From a virus (lineage: Duplodnaviria > Heunggongvirae > Uroviricota > Caudoviricetes): a DNA stretch of 12,778 nucleotides. Positions 2,734 to 12,778 of the stretch are shown one piece after another. The stretch is from the IMG/VR virus record IMGVR_UViG_2711768056_000012, positions 1 through 12,778 of that record; one strand, 5' to 3'. A model generated the notes under the pieces. The model had not been told where the DNA came from, did no database searches, and saw only the letters and a program-made list of their open reading frames with translations. A program made the position numbers and the translations under genes. Position 1 is the first letter of the stretch. Each line of letters starts with the position of its first letter.

Positions 2734-3033
2734 TCACATCACCCTGAAGCCGTTGCATTTACGTAAGAAATCGCAGATATAGCCTTTCATTTTTTCATGC
2801 CAATCTCGATCATTCCCATTGCACCAACCATCAGGTGGAGTCCAGTTTTCTATCAGAGCAGCCATTTTCTTTGCTTTCGCCGGAGTAGCTGTTGCGGTAT
2901 CGCAGTAATGACGAGTGTTAACCAACGCATCCATACCATCGATATCAAGTACGCAAAACCATGTGTGATTCGGCATTTCAACAGATGGTATTTGTTGCCC
3001 ACGTCGACGTTTATCAATAAGACATACAGTCAT
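2734..3033 (-). CDS. hypothetical protein, 99 aa
   Basis: ORF 2734..3033. Its ATG (3033..3031) overlaps the TGA (3032..3030) of the upstream gene in an ATGA arrangement, suggesting translational coupling. No recognised motif. Confidence 0.5.
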   Translation of the reverse strand: MTVCLIDKRRRGQQIPSVEMPNHTWFCVLDIDGMDALVNTRHYCDTATATPAKAKKMAALIENWTPPDGWCNGNDRDWHEKMKGYICDFLRKCNGFRVM

Positions 3034-3656
3034 GGTTCCACCTTCTCTATTTGCTTAAGACCGTCTCTCACTGCATTAAGTACGCGTTCCAGATACTGGT
3101 ATTTCGGGTTTGGTACCGTTGGCCAGTCGGCATACCACGGATCATCACCAAAGAGATTCAGCAGTTTGTTACCGACGCCGAAACAACAGCAGCTTTCTTT
3201 TACGTCATCGGCGTTTTCCGCCTCGTCCCACATTTCGCGAGCCTGTACCGCGTCGATTTCTCTCTCTCTTCGTAACTTTATGATTTCTGACTTCACGAAA
3301 AGCAGATTTGCATCGTTGTCATCGTCGACCGTGCTTCGCAGTTGAGGTTCGAAATAGCCGATTAGATACTCGTTGCTGACCCGCTTAATGAACGTCTGCA
3401 CATCATCACCGCCCATAGCAAACCAAGCCGCAGTCCACGCTTTTCCGTAGCAGGTGATGGTGATTCTTCCCTTACCAGGTTCGTAGTTTTCAATCATCAC
3501 TCGAACCGGATCTAGTCGCTCTGCACCGGTTATAACGAATGACAACACATCAATCTTTTCAACCGTTACACTCACTGTTTGCCTCCTTTGCTCGCTGATT
3601 CCACTCTGCTCTAACCTCTGAATAAAAAATCGCGCAGTCATTTCCAGGAGCTGCAT
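3030..3656 (-). CDS. hypothetical protein (about 208 aa; start uncertain)
   Basis: ORF-track frame 3030..3767 overlaps the Lar-like gene for over 200 nt at its 5' end. Candidate ATGs at 3656 and 3641 have only weak SDs; an in-frame GTG at 3548 just after the Lar stop is also possible. Contains an acidic patch (STVDDDNDANLLF) and a CCC motif. Confidence 0.45.
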   Translation of the reverse strand: MQLLEMTARFFIQRLEQSGISEQRRQTVSVTVEKIDVLSFVITGAERLDPVRVMIENYEPGKGRITITCYGKAWTAAWFAMGGDDVQTFIKRVSNEYLIGYFEPQLRSTVDDDNDANLLFVKSEIIKLRREREIDAVQAREMWDEAENADDVKESCCCFGVGNKLLNLFGDDPWYADWPTVPNPKYQYLERVLNAVRDGLKQIEKVEP

Positions 3657-3795
3657 ATTTGCTACCAGATTGAGCGCGACACGTACCGCATCGAACGAAA
3701 TAGAATCGACCGCCAGAGCCATATTCAGGGTGATCTGCTTCGCTGGCAACGTGCGCTGCACCGCCACAGAATGGACATGGTAGTAGGTTGCTCAT
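3559..3795 (-). CDS. lar: Lar-family restriction-alleviation-like protein, 78 aa
   Basis: Start taken at ATG 3795..3793 ([16 protein letters not shown]...), which overlaps the TGA of the upstream 186-aa gene (ATGA). The CPFCGG ... RCGTCRAQ zinc-ribbon-like pattern matches what I recall for the Lar family (Rac prophage Lar). Confidence 0.5.
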   Translation of the reverse strand: MSNLLPCPFCGGAAHVASEADHPEYGSGGRFYFVRCGTCRAQSGSKYAAPGNDCAIFYSEVRAEWNQRAKEANSECNG

Positions 3796-4352
3796 GAATG
3801 CACTCCCTTGTGAAGCTGTTCCGCACAATGCAGCAGGGCGTCAGTCGCCTCTTTCACCGTAACGCAGTCGCCATCGTCCAGCCCGGACACCGACGCGTGC
3901 TTAACGAACGCCGCGCAAAGGTCATCAAACGCCTTAGCCCGGACTTCAGTCAGGAAAGCATCGGTGGCTGGGGTGTCTGATTGTATATACTTTGCGCGAT
4001 AGTCATTCCACCCTCTTGCATACATGGGATTAACTTGCACTCCATCTTTTACGCAATATGCCTGCCCTCCACGGTTGATAACCTTGATTTCGTCCATAGC
4101 GCCAGACTTCAGACCCGCATTCTCCGCTGCCAGTGCCGAAAACTTCTCGTGTGCCAACTTAACAGCCGAATCAGCCTGCTTAATTGACTCAATCGCTTTC
4201 TGTTGGTCTTCGGCCAGCGCCAAAATCTTGGCCTCCGCTTCAGCAAATTTACGCACCAGATATTCAGCGTTTGTTTCGTTAACCTTTAAATCTCGTGGGA
4301 TGCATTTACCTTTCAGAAAACCATCCATCTCAATTAGTGACATTTGTTTCAT
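3792..4352 (-). CDS. hypothetical phage protein, 186 aa, N-terminal coiled-coil
   Basis: ORF 3792..4352. ATG 4352..4350 overlaps the TGA of the upstream small ORF (ATGA). N-terminal half is alanine/glutamate-rich and helical-looking ([45 protein letters not shown]). Confidence 0.55.
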
Positions 4353-4513
4353 TTCTTCCCACTCCGCAACATCGCATTAAGATATTTGTTGTCATTAACA
4401 GAACCGAAACTATTTCTCTTAAGCAATTCCTCTCTCGATGGCATTGGCTTTACGCGTTGGCGAATAATCATTTCTGCCGGAAGAATGCCGGGATTGTATG
4501 CAAGTCCTCTCAT
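4349..4513 (-). CDS. small hypothetical protein, 54 aa (start uncertain)
   Basis: Frame of the 4349..4663 ORF. The internal ATG at 4513..4511 (MRGLAYNPG...) is preceded by GAGGAA and avoids overlap with the 97-aa gene. Its stop overlaps the downstream ATG. Confidence 0.3.
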
Positions 4514-4523
4514 GGTAAATTCC

Positions 4524-4817
4524 TCAGTCATTACTGATAGCGCCATAGCGTGAGCGGTAATTACGCAGTCGCGGGTCAATTTCAGGGAAGTGGGTATATG
4601 TGGCTTTGCGGAATGGTCGGATTGATGTCTGGTAAATTCGCTCGCGTTCTTCTTTCTCTGCAAGCCATATACAATGGCGAAATTCCTTTTCCTCTTTCGT
4701 TTCCTGCGGTAGCGACATTATCAGGTCGTAGTTTTTTCTGAATTTATCCAGCACCTCCGATACGGAATTGCCGGAACAGCGGCGCGGGTCATCCGCACCA
4801 TACTGAGGCGCTGGCAT
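4524..4817 (-). CDS. hypothetical protein, 97 aa
   Basis: ORF 4524..4817 with ATG 4817..4815 preceded by a strong AGGAGAAAAT SD, immediately downstream of ssb. Charged and Arg-rich, no recognised motif. Confidence 0.5.
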
Positions 4818-4830
4818 GATTTTCTCCTGA

Positions 4831-5337
4831 TTAAATTGCGTGAATAGCGTGACGAGGGAAGGGGAGAGTTACTGGTGCAAAGGGTATATCGTCGTCAAAA
4901 TCCATCGGAGGTTCGTTGTGTTGTGCTGGTGATGATTGCTGCTGTGGCTTCTGTGATTGCCTGCTGGCTGCTTGTTGTTTGCTGTCGCCAATGCCGCCAA
5001 GCATCTGCATCACGCCATTAATTCCGACATGAACCTCGGTTGTGTAACGGTCTTGCCCTGACTGGTCTTTCCACTTTCTGGTTCTCAGCATTCCCTCGAA
5101 ATAAATCTGATCACCTTTTTTCACATACTGCCCCACGACCTCAGCCAGTTTCCCGGATACAGCAACACGATGCCATTCAGTCAATTCCTTTTGCTCGCCA
5201 GTATTTTTATCTCGCCATTGTTCTGACGTGGCTATTGTCAGGTTAGCGAACGCTGTTCCTGATGGTGAGTATCGAACTTCCGGGTCTTGTCCTACCCGAC
5301 CAAGGATAATCACCTTATTTACGCCTCTGCTTGCCAT
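4831..5337 (-). CDS. ssb: single-stranded DNA-binding protein (SSB), 168 aa
   Basis: Translation has a typical SSB OB-fold N-terminus ([44 protein letters not shown]...), a Gln/Pro/Gly-rich linker and the acidic C-terminal tail ending in DFDDDIPF, characteristic of bacterial and phage SSBs. Confidence 0.9.
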
Positions 5338-6045
5338 TTATGCCGCCTGTTTTAGTTCGTTAACTCTGATGTTCATTACCTGAACGCATTTAGCCTGCGC
5401 TTCCTCGTTGCCAGCCATTAATTGCCAGTCACGCTGATAACGCTCGATGAGTTTTTTCTTATCAGTTTCTTTCGATGCATAATCGCTGAAGTCTTTCAGG
5501 ATTTGTTCGCAGTCAACCGATGGAGATTTCTGGTTGGTATTTTCTGGTGATGGTTTGTTATCTGATGCTGGGATTGCCCAGCCGGGCAGCGTTGGAGGGA
5601 GCCAGTAAAACCCTGTTCCATCCTTCAGTTTTGCCCTGTGCCACCCCTGCTTTTTATCGAGAGATGTTTGTGCGAAACCTTCCTCAAGGTTATACAGATA
5701 CCGACCGATTCCCCATTGAACGGCAGCGCGCTTCATTGCACCGGAACGACCACCTTTGACGGCTTCTACTTGCGTGTTTTCAGCAGCATCCCATTTGGTT
5801 ACCCATTCGGAATCAATCTTGATTGATATGCCGCATTCAACTCCGCCGTTGTTGGGAATATCGCGGTATTCATTGCGCCATCCTGCTTTGCCGCAAACAT
5901 CGTCCAGGCGTTTCATGATTGCCCTGTTCGTGACATAAGCCAGCACCATAGCCCACACTTTTCCATCGCGTGTTTTACCGCTTTGCTGTATTCGCCATTC
6001 GATATCTTCAGGGCTGAATGGCTCATCGAATTTATTCAAATCCAT
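5338..6045 (-). CDS. Rad52-like single-strand annealing protein (Sak-type recombinase), 235 aa
   Basis: ORF 5338..6045 with ATG 6045..6043 and a GAGGTG SD. Stop TAA directly abuts the ssb ATG. The motif VKGGRSGAMKRAAVQWGIGRYLY resembles the conserved core of phage Rad52/Sak-family proteins (recalled). Occupies the position of lambda bet. Confidence 0.6.
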   Translation of the reverse strand: MDLNKFDEPFSPEDIEWRIQQSGKTRDGKVWAMVLAYVTNRAIMKRLDDVCGKAGWRNEYRDIPNNGGVECGISIKIDSEWVTKWDAAENTQVEAVKGGRSGAMKRAAVQWGIGRYLYNLEEGFAQTSLDKKQGWHRAKLKDGTGFYWLPPTLPGWAIPASDNKPSPENTNQKSPSVDCEQILKDFSDYASKETDKKKLIERYQRDWQLMAGNEEAQAKCVQVMNIRVNELKQAA

Positions 6046-6144
6046 AATTCACCTCAGAATGGACATGGCCCAAGGAAATAACGCTGGTTTAATACTTCGA
6101 CTCTGGACAAATTAAGGCATACCCGCATTCCTTCGCGGTCACCA

Positions 6145-6303
6145 TTATGGCGATACCAGAGAGCTTTCTGCGTGTACATGCGTCTCTGTAACTTGCTCTC
6201 CTTCACTGTGGTTGCAAGTAACATGAATATCTCCTTCGTTACCGATTAATTCTTTCATCTGACGAATGAATTCTTCGTCTGACCAGTTATCTGTAAAACT
6301 CAT
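6145..6303 (-). CDS. possible small ORF, 52 aa (speculative)
   Basis: Hand-translated from ATG 6303..6301, which overlaps the TGA of the Kil-like ORF: MSFTDNWSDEEFIRQMKELIGNEGDIHVTCNHSEGEQVTETHVHAESSLVSP. SD is too close to be convincing; expression would depend on coupling. Confidence 0.2.
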   Translation of the reverse strand: MSFTDNWSDEEFIRQMKELIGNEGDIHVTCNHSEGEQVTETHVHAESSLVSP

Positions 6304-6452
6304 TTCCTGCGATACCACGGAAGGTTGATAGCTGATTTCATCGCTTTATTTGCTTCAAGCCACATTTTTGAATCACCAATAAATCTGGCTATTACTGCTT
6401 TGTTCTGTGCAGCACGAAGCATCTGGTGATTAATGGCTATTTCATTGCGCAT
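6300..6452 (-). CDS. Kil-like small protein candidate, 50 aa (below ORF-track cutoff)
   Basis: Hand-translated from ATG 6452..6450, preceded by GGAGGCGTT at 5-nt spacing: MRNEIAINHQMLRAAQNKAVIARFIGDSKMWLEANKAMKSAINLPWYRRK. Lies immediately distal to cIII, where lambda has kil, and is of similar size. Assignment is by position and size only. Confidence 0.4.
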   Translation of the reverse strand: MRNEIAINHQMLRAAQNKAVIARFIGDSKMWLEANKAMKSAINLPWYRRK

Positions 6453-7324: not shown

Positions 7325-7597
7325 TTACCTCGCTGTCAGTTGTTTTGATTTCCGGTAGCCTGCCGCGTAAATGGCTACGTTTGGCAGGCAAATACTTCCA
7401 CTGCATTCATCTTCCTTCTTGCAGCGAAGGCTTCCGAGTGATGCTGCTTTGTCTGCTCTGACGCAACCAGAGAGCTTTAGCGCAATTTTTCGCGCCAGTC
7501 GCTGTTCTTGCATTGCCTGCTCACGTTGAGCCTGTCTGCGTGCTCTGCGGCGATTTCTGGCGTTATCGTCAGCCAGATATGTAATGACTACTGTCAT
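7325..7597 (-). CDS. N: N-type transcription antiterminator, 90 aa
   Basis: ATG 7597..7595 with a GGAGG SD. N-terminal arginine-rich motif (DNARNRRRARRQAQREQ). C-terminus AAGYRKSKQLTAR resembles the P22-type N (gene 24) C-terminus as recalled. First gene downstream of pL and nutL. Confidence 0.85.
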   Translation of the reverse strand: MTVVITYLADDNARNRRRARRQAQREQAMQEQRLARKIALKLSGCVRADKAASLGSLRCKKEDECSGSICLPNVAIYAAGYRKSKQLTAR

Positions 7598-7965: not shown

Positions 7966-8334
7966 TTAGTCAGCGAAGGTTAAGACGAGAATTACCTTAA
8001 TGATATCTGCTACAACAGACACGGCCATAGATAAACCAAAGACAATCCAAGCCATAGAGATGTCTTCACTACCATCGTATAGAGTTCCGTAATCACTGGT
8101 GTAAGGCGTAAATGTCGCGCCTTGATACAACAGGTATAAGCTTGAACCATAGAGGATAAATGCAGATATCCCTTGTATTGCTATGATCACTAGAATCATG
8201 AAACGAGCTGATCTATGCGCCCAAGCCTGGCTTATTTTTTCTGATAGAGATTTCGCAATAAAAGCATGCGCTAAGCCGTAAATTGTCGAGATTGCCAACA
8301 TCCCAAAAAAGCTTGCTATAGCGGTTCCAACCAT
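7966..8334 (-). CDS. small integral membrane protein in the rexAB-equivalent slot (candidate exclusion/abortive-infection protein), 122 aa
   Basis: ORF-track frame 7966..8355 begins at TTG; the ATG at 8334..8332 is preceded by AAGGGG and lies 17 nt downstream of the cI stop, consistent with co-transcription with cI. Three long hydrophobic segments separated by a basic loop (KSLSEKISQAWAHRSAR) and an acidic loop (TPYTSDYGTLYDGSEDIS). No similarity to lambda RexB that I can recognise. Confidence 0.6.
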   Translation of the reverse strand: MVGTAIASFFGMLAISTIYGLAHAFIAKSLSEKISQAWAHRSARFMILVIIAIQGISAFILYGSSLYLLYQGATFTPYTSDYGTLYDGSEDISMAWIVFGLSMAVSVVADIIKVILVLTFAD

Positions 8335-8351
8335 AATCGCCCCTTGCGTGA

Positions 8352-9068
8352 TCAAACCAGCCTTAGTTTTGTCTCAATTGCAACGCCTATAATCTTGCAG
8401 TTTCCATTGATTGGCACGAGAGGCCATGCAGGATTAAGTCCCTTGAGGTATTTATTTCCGCCGTCGATTATCAGCTTCTTGAATGTTGCTTCGTTAGAGT
8501 CAGAAAGTTTTGCTATGACCAAGCTGCCGTTGATCGCCTCCCTTCCGGTATCGAAAAGAACGAATGTTCCCTCTGGAATGCTTAACCCAACCGGTGCCGT
8601 CATTGAATCACCTTCCACTTTAAGCCAGAACGCATTACCTTGAATATGCGCGTCAGACTCAAGCCAAACATCTATGTCTTTAATGGTGTATGGTTCGCAT
8701 GCTTCACACCACGAGCCAGCCTGGATACTGCTTAACACCGGATACCTCTTTCCTGCTCTGTATTCCCCTGCATACCTTACGTTGGCATCGCTCTTAAGGC
8801 TTTCTGCCTGTTCTGCAACCTTGGCAGCAATTGACTGGCTAAAATCAGCAATTGAGACTTGCAACAGTCGTGCAAAACCAGATGCAACCTCAACGTTTAG
8901 CGCGTTTCTGCCATTAAGATAATGCCCTACCGCTCCTTGGGTGATACCCAGTTCATCAGCGATTGAGTATTGGGTTATCCCCAATTCTTTCTTTTTTGAC
9001 TCATACAAAGCCTTAAGCCGCTTAGCGTCTTCGAGCTGTTCTGTCGTCAGTGATTTTTTATTTTCCAT
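8352..9068 (-). CDS. cI: CI repressor (HTH DNA-binding domain plus LexA-like S24 autopeptidase domain), 238 aa
   Basis: N-terminus closely resembles lambda CI as recalled (KKSLTTEQLEDAKRLKALYESKKKELGITQYSIADELGITQGAVGHYLNGRNALN). C-terminal domain carries the Ala-Gly cleavage site (SIQAGSW), the catalytic Ser (EGDSMTAP) and Lys (TFKKLI). Divergent from cro across an operator region. Confidence 0.92.
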   Translation of the reverse strand: MENKKSLTTEQLEDAKRLKALYESKKKELGITQYSIADELGITQGAVGHYLNGRNALNVEVASGFARLLQVSIADFSQSIAAKVAEQAESLKSDANVRYAGEYRAGKRYPVLSSIQAGSWCEACEPYTIKDIDVWLESDAHIQGNAFWLKVEGDSMTAPVGLSIPEGTFVLFDTGREAINGSLVIAKLSDSNEATFKKLIIDGGNKYLKGLNPAWPLVPINGNCKIIGVAIETKLRLV

Positions 9069-10793: not shown

Positions 10794-10901
10794 ATGAAAT
10801 CAAAAATCAAATCGCTACTGGTCGCTGGTTATAACCACGGCTGGTTAAGTATTTCGTTTGTCGATTTCTGGTTTAAAAATCTCAATCTGAGGGAATCATG
10901 A
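10794..10901 (+). CDS. possible small ORF, 35 aa (speculative)
   Basis: ATG 10794 lies 4 nt after the O stop; TGA at 10899..10901 overlaps the ATG of the primase-helicase. Product MKSKIKSLLVAGYNHGWLSISFVDFWFKNLNLRES. No convincing SD. Confidence 0.2.
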   Translation: MKSKIKSLLVAGYNHGWLSISFVDFWFKNLNLRES

Positions 10902-12778
10902 CACCAAGTGAACTTAGCGACCTGCTTTGGGCGCAGGTTGACAGGGTGGCTCCGCACCTGTTGCCAAACGGCAAGAAAGAGGGGCATGAGTGGGTTGCCG
11001 GTAACGTCAACGGTGACAAGGGAAACAGCCTTAAGGTCAACCTTAGCGGCAAGAAAAAATGGGCTGATTTCGCTGAGGGAGACGGCGGTGACATGCTTGA
11101 TTTGTGGATGGCATGTCGTGGAATTAACCTGCATCAGGCTATGCAGGAAGCGAAAGCATTTCTCGGTATCAAGGATGACGATCACCATTTCGATGCCAAA
11201 CGTGAGAAAAAATTCTCCAGACCTGATCGCAAAAAAATCGCCCGCTACGTTACCAGAACAGAATCCCATCTTGAGTACCTGCAATCGCGTGGCATATCGC
11301 CAGAAGTCGTAAAGCGCTACGAGGTTGTCAGCGGCAAGGTGTGGAATGGAGAGCGGGAACTGGATGCTCTGGTGATTCCGTACAAACGCGATGGTGAGTT
11401 GTTGCAGGTCAAGCGAATCAGCACTGAGCGCCCGGACGGGAAGAAAGTCATTATGGCAGAAGGTGATTGCGAACCTTGTCTGTTCGGATGGCAGGCTCTG
11501 GACGCTGGCGTGAGGGCGGTTGTACTTTGCGAAGGCGAAATTGATTGTATGAGCTATGCGCAATACGGCATCTCGGCGTTATCCGTGCCGTTTGGTGGCG
11601 GGAAAGGCGCTAAGCAGCAGTGGATTGAGTTTGAGTATCACAATCTCGACAGGTTTGAGGAAATATTCATCTCGATGGACGTTGATGATGTTGGTCGTGA
11701 AGCCGCAAGGGAAATCGCAAGCCGACTCGGTGAACATCGTTGCCGTCTTGTTACTCTGCCGTACAAAGACATCAACGAATGCCTGATGAACGGTGTTACC
11801 GAGGATGAAATCTGGCAGTACATCGGCACGGCATCCTACTTCGACCCTGAAGAACTCTACAGCGCGCGAGAGTTTTACCAGGACACTATCAACGCTTTCT
11901 ACGGCAATCAGCAGTATCTGTTTAATCCACCGTGGGAATCTCTGGCAGATAAATTCCAGTTCCGTGAGGCCGAGTTGACGCTGGTCAATGGTGTGAACGG
12001 TCACGGAAAAACGGAGGTTGTCGGACATATGGCTCTTGAGGCAATGCGTCAGGGTGTGAAGACGTGCATCGCGTCACTTGAGCTGAAGCCTGGTATTCTC
12101 CTTAAGCGCCTTACCCGTCAGGCGACGTGCTGCAAGATGCCGCCAGTGCTGGAAATTGACTCTGCATTTAAATTTTATGACGAAAGACTTTGGGTGTTTG
12201 GTCTGACCGGAACGGCGAAAGCCGACAGGCTGATCGAAATATTCGACTACGCTCGCCGCCGATACGGGATCCAGTTATTCATCATCGACAGCCTGATGAA
12301 ATGTGGCATAGGAGACGATGACTATAACGGGCAGAAGGCGTTTGTTGACTCGATTTGCGACTTCAAAAACAAAACAAACTCCCACGTCATTCTCGTTACT
12401 CACTCGCGAAAAGGAGACAGCGAAGAAAAACCAACCGGGAAAATGGACGTAAAAGGCTCTGGAGCGATAACAGACCTGACAGACAACCTTTTCATCATCT
12501 GGCGTAACAAGGCTCGCGAGAGAGCATTACAGAGAGTTCAGAGTGGTGAAAAGATGTCAGAGAAGGACGAACAGCTACTGGCATCTCCGGCATCTGTTTT
12601 GATGCTTGAAAAACAACGTAACGGCGAAGGTTGGGAAGGTGGTGTCCCGTTGTTCCTTGACGAGCAATCGCACCAGTTCCTGCAACTTGAATCAGGATCG
12701 CCATATAGCTACATCGCCAATATGCCGAAATCGGAATATGACGAGGCGTGGCGACAGGAAAACGTGACGGAGTATTAA
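10898..12778 (+). CDS. fused DNA primase (Toprim) / DnaB-like (SF4) replicative helicase, 626 aa
   Basis: GAGGGAA SD before ATG 10898; complete ORF ending TAA at 12776..12778. Toprim signatures are present (VVLCEGEIDCMSYAQ and FISMDVDDVGREAA with DxD). C-terminal RecA-like domain has Walker A (LVNGVNGHGKTE) and Walker B-like (IQLFIIDSLMK) motifs. The N-terminal region looks like a primase zinc-binding domain lacking the cysteines (WADFAEGDGGDMLDLWM). Confidence 0.8.
   Translation: MTPSELSDLLWAQVDRVAPHLLPNGKKEGHEWVAGNVNGDKGNSLKVNLSGKKKWADFAEGDGGDMLDLWMACRGINLHQAMQEAKAFLGIKDDDHHFDAKREKKFSRPDRKKIARYVTRTESHLEYLQSRGISPEVVKRYEVVSGKVWNGERELDALVIPYKRDGELLQVKRISTERPDGKKVIMAEGDCEPCLFGWQALDAGVRAVVLCEGEIDCMSYAQYGISALSVPFGGGKGAKQQWIEFEYHNLDRFEEIFISMDVDDVGREAAREIASRLGEHRCRLVTLPYKDINECLMNGVTEDEIWQYIGTASYFDPEELYSAREFYQDTINAFYGNQQYLFNPPWESLADKFQFREAELTLVNGVNGHGKTEVVGHMALEAMRQGVKTCIASLELKPGILLKRLTRQATCCKMPPVLEIDSAFKFYDERLWVFGLTGTAKADRLIEIFDYARRRYGIQLFIIDSLMKCGIGDDDYNGQKAFVDSICDFKNKTNSHVILVTHSRKGDSEEKPTGKMDVKGSGAITDLTDNLFIIWRNKARERALQRVQSGEKMSEKDEQLLASPASVLMLEKQRNGEGWEGGVPLFLDEQSHQFLQLESGSPYSYIANMPKSEYDEAWRQENVTEY

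Follow-up and report, generated by a model that had tools for sequence, protein, structure and literature searches.

The stretch of DNA analysed here (the window, 12,778 nucleotides) very probably carries a Rec module of the HK75 type within the pL operon of a lambdoid prophage. This module is composed of a Rad52-family single-strand annealing protein (SSAP, or annealase), a phage SSB and the anti-RecBCD protein Abc2, and would depend on its host for the exonuclease. The module is already known: hundreds of E. coli genomes carry it with automatic annotation, it occurs in phages HK75 and ECP1, and it was classified in 2025. At a coverage of at least 80% of 1.5 kb, the trio was found, with PGAP annotation, in 363 of 5426 complete E. 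coli genomes. In the 2025 survey of 325 lambdoid phages the "HK75" type (anti-RecBCD+, SSB+, nuclease-, annealase (SAP)+) has 27 representatives (PMC12315714 Table 1), and the nuclease-bearing sister type, "ES18", is represented by 25 phages (Genome Res 2025, PMC12315714). The window contains such an HK75-type module as a contiguous early-left cluster, downstream of cI and pL. The features considered in this study are as follows.

8352-9068, minus strand: cI
7325-7597, minus strand: N-type antiterminator
6300-6452, minus strand: kil
6145-6303, minus strand: small acidic ORF, 52 aa from an ATG overlapping the stop codon of kil (PHROG 2123, E 9e-42)
5338-6045, minus strand: SSAP, 235 aa (Pfam PF04098, Rad52_Rad22)
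5638-6036, minus strand: Rad52_Rad22 core of the SSAP, aa 4-136 (Pfam PF04098)
5341-5520, minus strand: C-terminal domain of the SSAP, approximately aa 176-235, homologous to the one at the C-terminus of P22 Erf (BLASTP)
4831-5337, minus strand: phage SSB, 168 aa (Pfam PF00436, E 1.6e-36, 125 bits, cut-off 26), with its OB domain at aa 6-104 (Pfam PF00436)
4879-4902, minus strand: acidic tip DFDDDIPF of the SSB, aa 146-153
4831-4878, minus strand: 15-codon extension and stop codon past the canonical SSB C-terminus
4818-4830, minus strand: SSB/abc2 spacer of 13 nt, TCAGGAGAAAATC, carrying a Shine-Dalgarno sequence (comparison of the HK75, mEpX2 and epsilon34 junctions)
4524-4817, minus strand: Abc2 anti-RecBCD protein, 97 aa (Pfam PF11043, Anti-RecBCD_p2)
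4349-4513, minus strand: DUF2737 small protein, 54 aa (Pfam PF10930, E 2.7e-30; 75% identical to P22 ORF56)
3792-4352: ORF of 186 aa
3030-3575, minus strand: PF26211 protein of 181 aa

The window covers the part of a lambdoid prophage that contains its immunity and early genes. Its minus-strand genes are arranged, in the order of transcription, as cI, a 129-aa membrane protein, the N-type antiterminator, two small ORFs, cIII and kil, after which come two overlapping small ORFs, the SSAP, the SSB, Abc2 and DUF2737. Distal to DUF2737 are accessory genes (Lar, DUF7739, Ead/Ea22, DUF551 and ea8.5) and, leftmost, an excisionase-like ORF, while cro, cII, O and the primase-helicase gene are encoded on the plus strand. 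Given this early-left gene order, the SSAP and SSB genes are located where Rec modules are canonically found in the pL operon. The genes are tightly packed, with minus-strand spacers of 0 nt (SSAP/SSB), 13 nt (SSB/abc2) and 10 nt (abc2/DUF2737). All plus-strand ORFs within 4831-6045 are of 79 aa or less, and a scan of the whole window with Rfam revealed no RNA families.

Two small genes flank the trio. DUF2737 follows abc2 in 78 of the 79 related loci that carry abc2 (80 IMG/VR loci in all), and its membership in the recombination module is uncertain. The 52-aa acidic ORF sits at the position of P22 arf and is, equally uncertainly, a possible accessory factor. It gave no match to Pfam Phage_Arf, and its likeness to P22 Arf is confined to a 7-residue SDEEFI stretch (E 0.17); neither Arf nor Abc1 of P22 has a significant counterpart in the window.

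The first-pass annotation of this DNA had described a Rad52/Sak-like protein directly followed by a phage SSB, and both assignments hold. The SSAP matches Rad52_Rad22 with an E value of 4.9e-26 (91.9 bits, cut-off 20.3) over profile positions 7-153 of 153, and no ERF or RecT match was obtained in Pfam at E values up to 0.1. PF04098 was also detected in all of the best 120 of 5591 SSAP homologues. The alignment of the family revealed invariant K105 and R106, as well as an invariant GIGRYLY segment; K105/R106 are presumably the equivalents of the groove residues K152/R153 of human RAD52. The TAA-ATG junction noted earlier is likewise as described: on the minus strand it reads ...GCGGCA TAA ATG GCA..., the stop codon of the SSAP gene directly abutting the start codon of ssb.

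An AlphaFold2 model of the SSAP, built from a 30-sequence alignment (mean pLDDT 82), consists of the core, a low-confidence linker (approximately aa 162-176) and a three-helix C-terminal domain (aa 179-234; pLDDT about 90). When the model was compared with the PDB using Foldseek, ranks 1-17 were all occupied by human RAD52 or yeast Mgm101 (probability 0.80-1.00, E values 1e-3 to 3e-2). The TM scores of these matches are modest (0.21-0.43), which is explained by the extra C-terminal domain present in the model. Searches of the PDB by sequence, with the single protein or with a 30-sequence profile, recovered no RAD52 entry and gave chance-level matches (e.g. a WW-domain at E 0.04); the family assignment therefore rests on Pfam and the fold search. 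Both indicate that the predicted core of the protein is of the Rad52/Sak type, and that the SSAP is not a RecT protein nor its core an Erf one.

The C-terminal part of the SSAP has a different affinity. BLASTP aligned its residues 157-235 with residues 134-205 of P22 Erf at 62% identity (E 3.7e-29). In P22 Erf the ERF domain (PF04404) covers aa 5-146 (E 4.6e-46), so that the shared stretch falls beyond it. The SSAP thus combines a Rad52 core with an Erf-type three-helix domain, which explains its PHROG label "Erf-like"; swaps of Erf domains have already been described for Sf6, ES18 and epsilon34 (PMC2629481). By analogy with the C-terminal domains of other annealases, this domain is presumed to be a module that binds SSB or another partner, SSB binding being the likelier role. 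A function as an adaptor for Abc2/RecBCD was also considered, but it was not adopted as the main reading in view of homologues from Yersinia, Providencia and Enterobacter in which the domain is kept and Abc2 is lacking.

The OB domain of the SSB is of the bacterial type, and residues 1-153 of the protein could be aligned with residues 1-178 of E. coli SSB (1EQQ) with an E value of 6.6e-58. The gene that follows it, abc2, starts just outside 4831-6045 and is preceded by an AGGAG Shine-Dalgarno sequence. Its product matches PF11043 over residues 1-97 of 97 (E 4.9e-64, 213 bits, cut-off 25) and the P22 Abc2 chain of the RecBCD-Abc2 cryo-EM structure (PDB 8B1T, E 2.2e-58), is 93.8% identical to P22 Abc2, and belongs to PHROG 656 ("abc2 anti-RecBCD"). 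Pro68, through which P22 Abc2 engages the host protein PpiB (PMC9836394), is retained (...IRPFR...). In function Abc2 corresponds to lambda Gam, although its mode of action is different. The earlier view that no Gam-like ORF is present nearby must therefore be abandoned.

P22 Abc2 binds RecC near the Chi-recognition domains, leaving RecBCD with both its helicase and its nuclease (PMC9836394, eLife 2022). It was proposed to turn RecBCD into a constitutively Chi-activated-like 5'-strand nuclease that would pass ssDNA to the phage recombinase, a handover that is a proposal even for P22 (PMC9836394). According to Murphy 2000, as summarized in a passage of Hutinet 2018, Abc2 turns RecBCD into a 5'-3' exonuclease, by which ends are made ready for recombination. 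Taking into account its identity to the P22 protein, the Abc2 of the window probably also binds RecC and alters both the Chi response and the nuclease polarity of RecBCD.

A phage-encoded nuclease was searched for among the ORFs of the window of at least 50 aa on the coding strands. No match to a nuclease family was obtained with Pfam, with PHROGs (left-arm, i.e. pL-operon, ORFs except those at 1-192, 272-643 and 643-810) or with NCBIfam (ten of the left-arm ORFs), in agreement with the first-pass annotation, which had seen no exonuclease-like ORF nearby. Homologues of lambda Exo (YqaJ-type), Bet and Gam were also absent from the window ORFs in these Pfam, PHROG and NCBIfam scans. Two proteins without an assigned function were analysed further. 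One of them, initially read as an ORF of 245 aa, is almost certainly a 181-aa gene with a GTG start near 3575, since members of its family start there. Its profile found nothing in the PDB by sequence, and its mediocre AlphaFold2 model (pLDDT 67.5) gave no PDB fold match in Foldseek better than E 0.098, with probabilities of 0.15 or less. The other, the 186-aa ORF, has a coiled-coil-like N-terminus in common with Ead/Ea22-type PHROGs and no PDB sequence match. The searches for a hidden nuclease in these two proteins are weak negatives.

Comparison with characterized phages places the module among several related systems. In HK75 (HK75_32, HK75_31 and HK75_30) the order and spacing of the trio are those of the window, the identity is 100% for the SSB and 97.7% for the DNA of the SSB/abc2 junction, and inside the module there is no material difference. 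The flanking pL genes do differ: HK75 carries Nun and HK022-type immunity, whereas the window contains an N-type antiterminator and a different cI. The P22 cluster arf-erf-abc1-abc2 occupies the same pL position past kil and cIII and is likewise followed by DUF2737/ORF56. Both P22 and the window lack a phage exonuclease and have RecBCD co-opted, with 94% identical Abc2 and 62% identical C-terminal domains of the annealase. Unlike P22, the window has a Rad52_Rad22 core instead of ERF, an SSB with a bacterial-type OB domain at the position of abc1, and no Phage_Arf match.

Modules of the ES18/epsilon34/Sf6/mEpX2 type contain the same families of annealase, SSB and Abc2 (88-97% DNA identity). In mEpX2, mEp235 and epsilon34 an extra gene for a 182-aa Rv2179c-like DEDD exonuclease is located between SSB and abc2, whereas the junction of the window is clean; Sf6 has at this site an extra 159-aa endonuclease gene, which is absent from the window. 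Lambda Red shares the operon position and the underlying logic, i.e. RecBCD is neutralised or redirected, 3' ssDNA tails are produced and annealing follows. Lambda, in contrast, supplies its own 5'-3' exonuclease and blocks RecBCD with Gam, while the module of the window would leave resection to modified RecBCD and adds a phage SSB. The Sak4-SSB-Abc2 module of HK620 has the same layout (annealase, SSB, Abc2), but with the RecA-like Sak4 as annealase and an SSB that shares no homology with bacterial SSB. In this phage the cognate SSB stimulates Sak4 recombineering through its C-terminal tail, and Abc2 gave no stimulation of oligonucleotide recombineering (Hutinet 2018).

A scan of IMG/VR with the C-terminal domain of the annealase yielded 80 loci, which differ in the genes inserted between the conserved ones. 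They include (i) the compact form seen in the window (27 loci), (ii) a gene for a 155-159-aa endonuclease (PHROG 2340) alone between SSB and abc2 (17 loci), (iii) the 182-aa Rv2179c-like DEDD 3'-5' exonuclease gene alone at that site (19 loci), (iv) both of these genes together (6 loci), and (v) another endonuclease gene, of the HNH_3 type, between annealase and SSB (10 loci, one of which also has the PHROG 2340 gene between SSB and abc2). A Red-type resection enzyme works with 5'-3' polarity, which neither of the optional nucleases (HNH-type endonuclease, DEDD 3'-5' exonuclease) has; DnaQ-type genes have been called curious in Rec modules (Genome Res 2025, PMC12315714). The DEDD cassette shows a clean presence/absence pattern directly past the SSB stop codon. 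In the window this stop is joined to the start of abc2 as TAA, TCAGGAGAAAATC, ATG, while in mEpX2 the order is TAA, GGACTTAC, the exonuclease gene from its ATG to its TAA, TCAACAGGAGAAAACC, and ATG. For the other cassette, that of the Sf6 gp26-type endonuclease, the cassette-free junction reads GATATACCCTTTGCACCAGTAACTCTCC.

Abc2 is encoded in 79 of the 80 loci, which, all having been retrieved with the C-terminal domain at 98% identity or more, are not independent observations; the exception stops approximately 0.5 kb past the SSAP gene. In distant Rad52-like homologues (57-64% identity; prophages of Yersinia, Providencia and Enterobacter) the annealase-SSB pair is kept and Abc2 is absent. 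The pair therefore forms the conserved core, able to work without Abc2, and Abc2 is an accessory of close relatives, mainly in E. coli, Salmonella and Shigella.

The C-terminus of the SSB deserves separate comment. The DFDDDIPF motif is non-terminal: the canonical tip region (aa 143-153) is followed by 15 further residues. The final 45 nt of ssb (4831-4875) correspond to the 3' end of the endonuclease gene of sister modules, and DNA-level comparison showed this tail-coding segment to be identical between the window and three sister loci. As read from the DNA, the extension thus reflects a fusion of ssb, in frame, with the final 14 endonuclease codons. It is present in 113 of the 120 closest SSB clusters. 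Among the 80 related IMG/VR loci the tail is fused to SSB in 55, none of which has the PHROG 2340 endonuclease gene; in every one of the 23 loci carrying this gene 3' of ssb, the SSB ends in ...IPF* and the tail is on the endonuclease. What the sequences show for the SSB tail is that it is fused, that the fused form is widespread, and that fusion and endonuclease gene strictly alternate.

The relationship had left a trace in earlier annotation, as the Sf6 record already remarks that gp26 has 14 contiguous residues in common with "E. coli SSB". The tail falls outside the PHROG profiles of both the SSB and the endonuclease families, and therefore two origins stand side by side: the fused tail may have arisen by loss of the cassette, or the cassette may have entered an extended ssb by homing insertion. 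Endonuclease-bearing alleles of both SSB sequence types have in common a distinct tip coding MNFDD..IPF, which suggests that the cassette may move together with a short flank.

Since Abc2 is present, the missing exonuclease most probably comes from host RecBCD and not from an unassigned ORF. In the reading that we favour, Abc2 would bind RecC and make RecBCD deaf to Chi and unable to load RecA, while its helicase and 5'-strand nuclease would be preserved. RecBCD-Abc2 would then resect the ends of phage DNA, leaving 3' ssDNA tails, as shown for P22 Abc2 and as the 94% identity leads us to expect here. The resected ssDNA would be coated by the phage SSB, a role suggested by its family membership. 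The annealase, probably through its Erf-type C-terminal domain, would displace SSB or be recruited by it, and would pair the tail with complementary ssDNA at another end or at a replication fork. This annealing step is proposed on the basis of the Rad52, Sak and Erf families, and because cognate SSBs stimulate other phage annealases.

A rather unlikely alternative is that the annealase and SSB act alone at forks or ssDNA gaps, with no resection nuclease, and that Abc2 just shields linear phage DNA. The pair retained without Abc2 in the distant homologues would fit this, as would HK620, where SSB but not Abc2 stimulated Sak4 recombineering. It is at odds with the occurrence of Abc2, always in the same cluster, in 79 of the 80 (not independent) close relatives, and with the nuclease activity that RecBCD keeps in complex with Abc2, unlike RecBCD blocked by Gam or gp5.9 (PMC9836394). 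Less probable still is a phage exonuclease hidden in the flanking ORFs, i.e. the 186-aa ORF, the 181-aa PF26211 protein or one of the small ORFs located at 6054-6318. None of them has been assigned a function, and with a model of pLDDT 67.5 a fold match of the 181-aa protein could have escaped detection, yet neither the Pfam, PHROG and NCBIfam scans nor the PDB sequence searches pointed to a nuclease, and none of the Foldseek matches of that model reached an E value below 0.09 or a probability above 0.15. Moreover, DUF2737 separates candidate ORFs from the trio, the flanks vary in HK75, mEpX2 and epsilon34 while the trio is constant, and Rec modules form contiguous clusters in the published survey (PMC12315714). 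Hence, when the first-pass annotation proposed that the exonuclease is either one of the unassigned ORFs or a host nuclease, the first option has gained no profile, PDB or fold support, and the second agrees with a RecBCD modified by Abc2.

It is equally improbable that the locus is a degraded, partly non-functional remnant of a four-gene ES18-type module, from which the nuclease cassette was deleted with damage to the SSB tail. The in-frame fusion of ssb to the last 14 endonuclease codons, with the same 45 nt in both contexts, is what such a deletion could leave behind. Against this, a 100% identical fused SSB is encoded by the plaque-forming phages HK75 and mEpX2, the fused form predominates (55 of the 80 related loci and 113 of the 120 closest SSB clusters), and the optional cassettes (HNH-type endonuclease, 3'-5' DEDD exonuclease) are without the 5'-3' polarity of Red.

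The strategy based on Abc2 is known (PMC9836394) and the HK75 type has been catalogued (PMC12315714); therefore the exonuclease-less arrangement, with annealase, SSB and Abc2 acting on host RecBCD, is no puzzle. As a discovery it carries little weight, the module type being known, widespread and already classified. Its practical value lies in a compact, nuclease-free, RecBCD-dependent recombination cassette, which is a candidate for comparison with lambda Red in recombineering.

A more speculative proposal, to which we assign a low probability, concerns the 15-residue extension of the SSB, which might be a functional switch and not a neutral fusion scar; the same junction might also be the site at which the endonuclease cassette homes. 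If so, the extension would remove the free C-terminal Phe carboxylate, so that the phage SSB would no longer recruit host SSB-interacting proteins, and the ssDNA generated by RecBCD-Abc2 would be channelled to the phage annealase. The masked tip of the SSB and its link with a mobile endonuclease cassette bear on how a phage SSB chooses between host and phage partners.

By sequence comparison, the annealase (SSAP) is a chimera: its core is Rad52_Rad22, joined to a C-terminal domain resembling that of P22 Erf, a protein whose own core is of the ERF type. The paper on the epsilon34 genome (PMC2629481) has previously described such chimerism under the name "Erf domain swaps". Two segments of the SSAP are relevant here:

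5341-5575, minus strand: Erf-like C-terminal domain (aa 157-235), 62% identical to the P22 Erf C-terminal domain
5566-5670, minus strand: three-stranded sheet (aa 126-160), located after the Rad52 core and before the linker, confident in the predicted model

The sheet contains the invariant residues W148, P151, L153, P154, W156 and P159. Its similarity to the WW domains of PRP40 is at chance level (E 0.04), and the modelled fold may represent a WW-like insert.

Several neighbouring genes also deserve comment:

3030-3767, minus strand: 245-aa ORF of the PF26211 family
3559-3828, minus strand: Lar-like gene
6054-6224, minus strand: small ORF, strong PHROG match labelled "recombinase"
6145-6318, minus strand: second small ORF, likewise with a strong "recombinase" PHROG match
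7966-8355, minus strand: predicted membrane protein of 129 aa, PHROG 6534 (unknown function)
10898-12778, plus strand: replication module, lambda-O-type initiator plus a fused Toprim primase/DnaB-like helicase ORF

The two small ORFs, which are in different frames and share 80 nt, occupy the position of arf in P22, and neither matched Phage_Arf in a Pfam scan. A 52-aa acidic version of the 6145-6318 ORF, starting at an ATG overlapping the stop codon of kil, has only the SDEEFI motif in common with P22 Arf. The 245-aa ORF is probably mis-extended at its 5' end, since PF26211 members (~180 aa) align their starts with a GTG near 3575, where there is a slight overlap with the Lar-like gene's stop codon; even so, the 65 codons upstream of this point, which lie across Lar in a different frame, also match PHROG 4132 (E 1e-22). 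The membrane protein gene, which translationally abuts the end of cI, sits where lambda has rexA/rexB and may function in exclusion or defence. The O-type initiator is paired not with a lambda P-type loader but with the primase/helicase fusion, whose ORF continues past the window end.

The SSB carries a 15-residue extension (4831-4878, minus strand) past the canonical DDDIPF tip. Its last 45 nt recur identically as the 3' end of a PHROG 2340 endonuclease gene (155-159 aa) whenever this gene follows ssb, as it does in 23 of the 80 related loci; in 55 of the 80 the tail is fused onto SSB. Loci for comparison are:

L005, 5667-6146
L016, 5667-6146
L038, 5661-6128
L091 (Sf6), 1057-1536

Alleles with the endonuclease share a differently coded SSB tip (MNFDD..IPF*). 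This pattern resembles a footprint left by a mobile endonuclease cassette, or the target of one.

Between SSAP and Abc2, sister modules contain at least three distinct nuclease-type cassettes. A second, unrelated endonuclease gene (HNH_3 + HTH; L010, 5184-5651) lies precisely at the annealase/SSB junction in ~10 of the 80 loci, in place of the TAA|ATG abutment of the window. In a Providencia prophage (L087), a distantly related annealase-SSB pair is directly preceded by a predicted exonuclease of 230 aa (PF10108, DNA_pol_B_exo2; 3281-3973) and has no Abc2, an arrangement that answers the nuclease question in another way.
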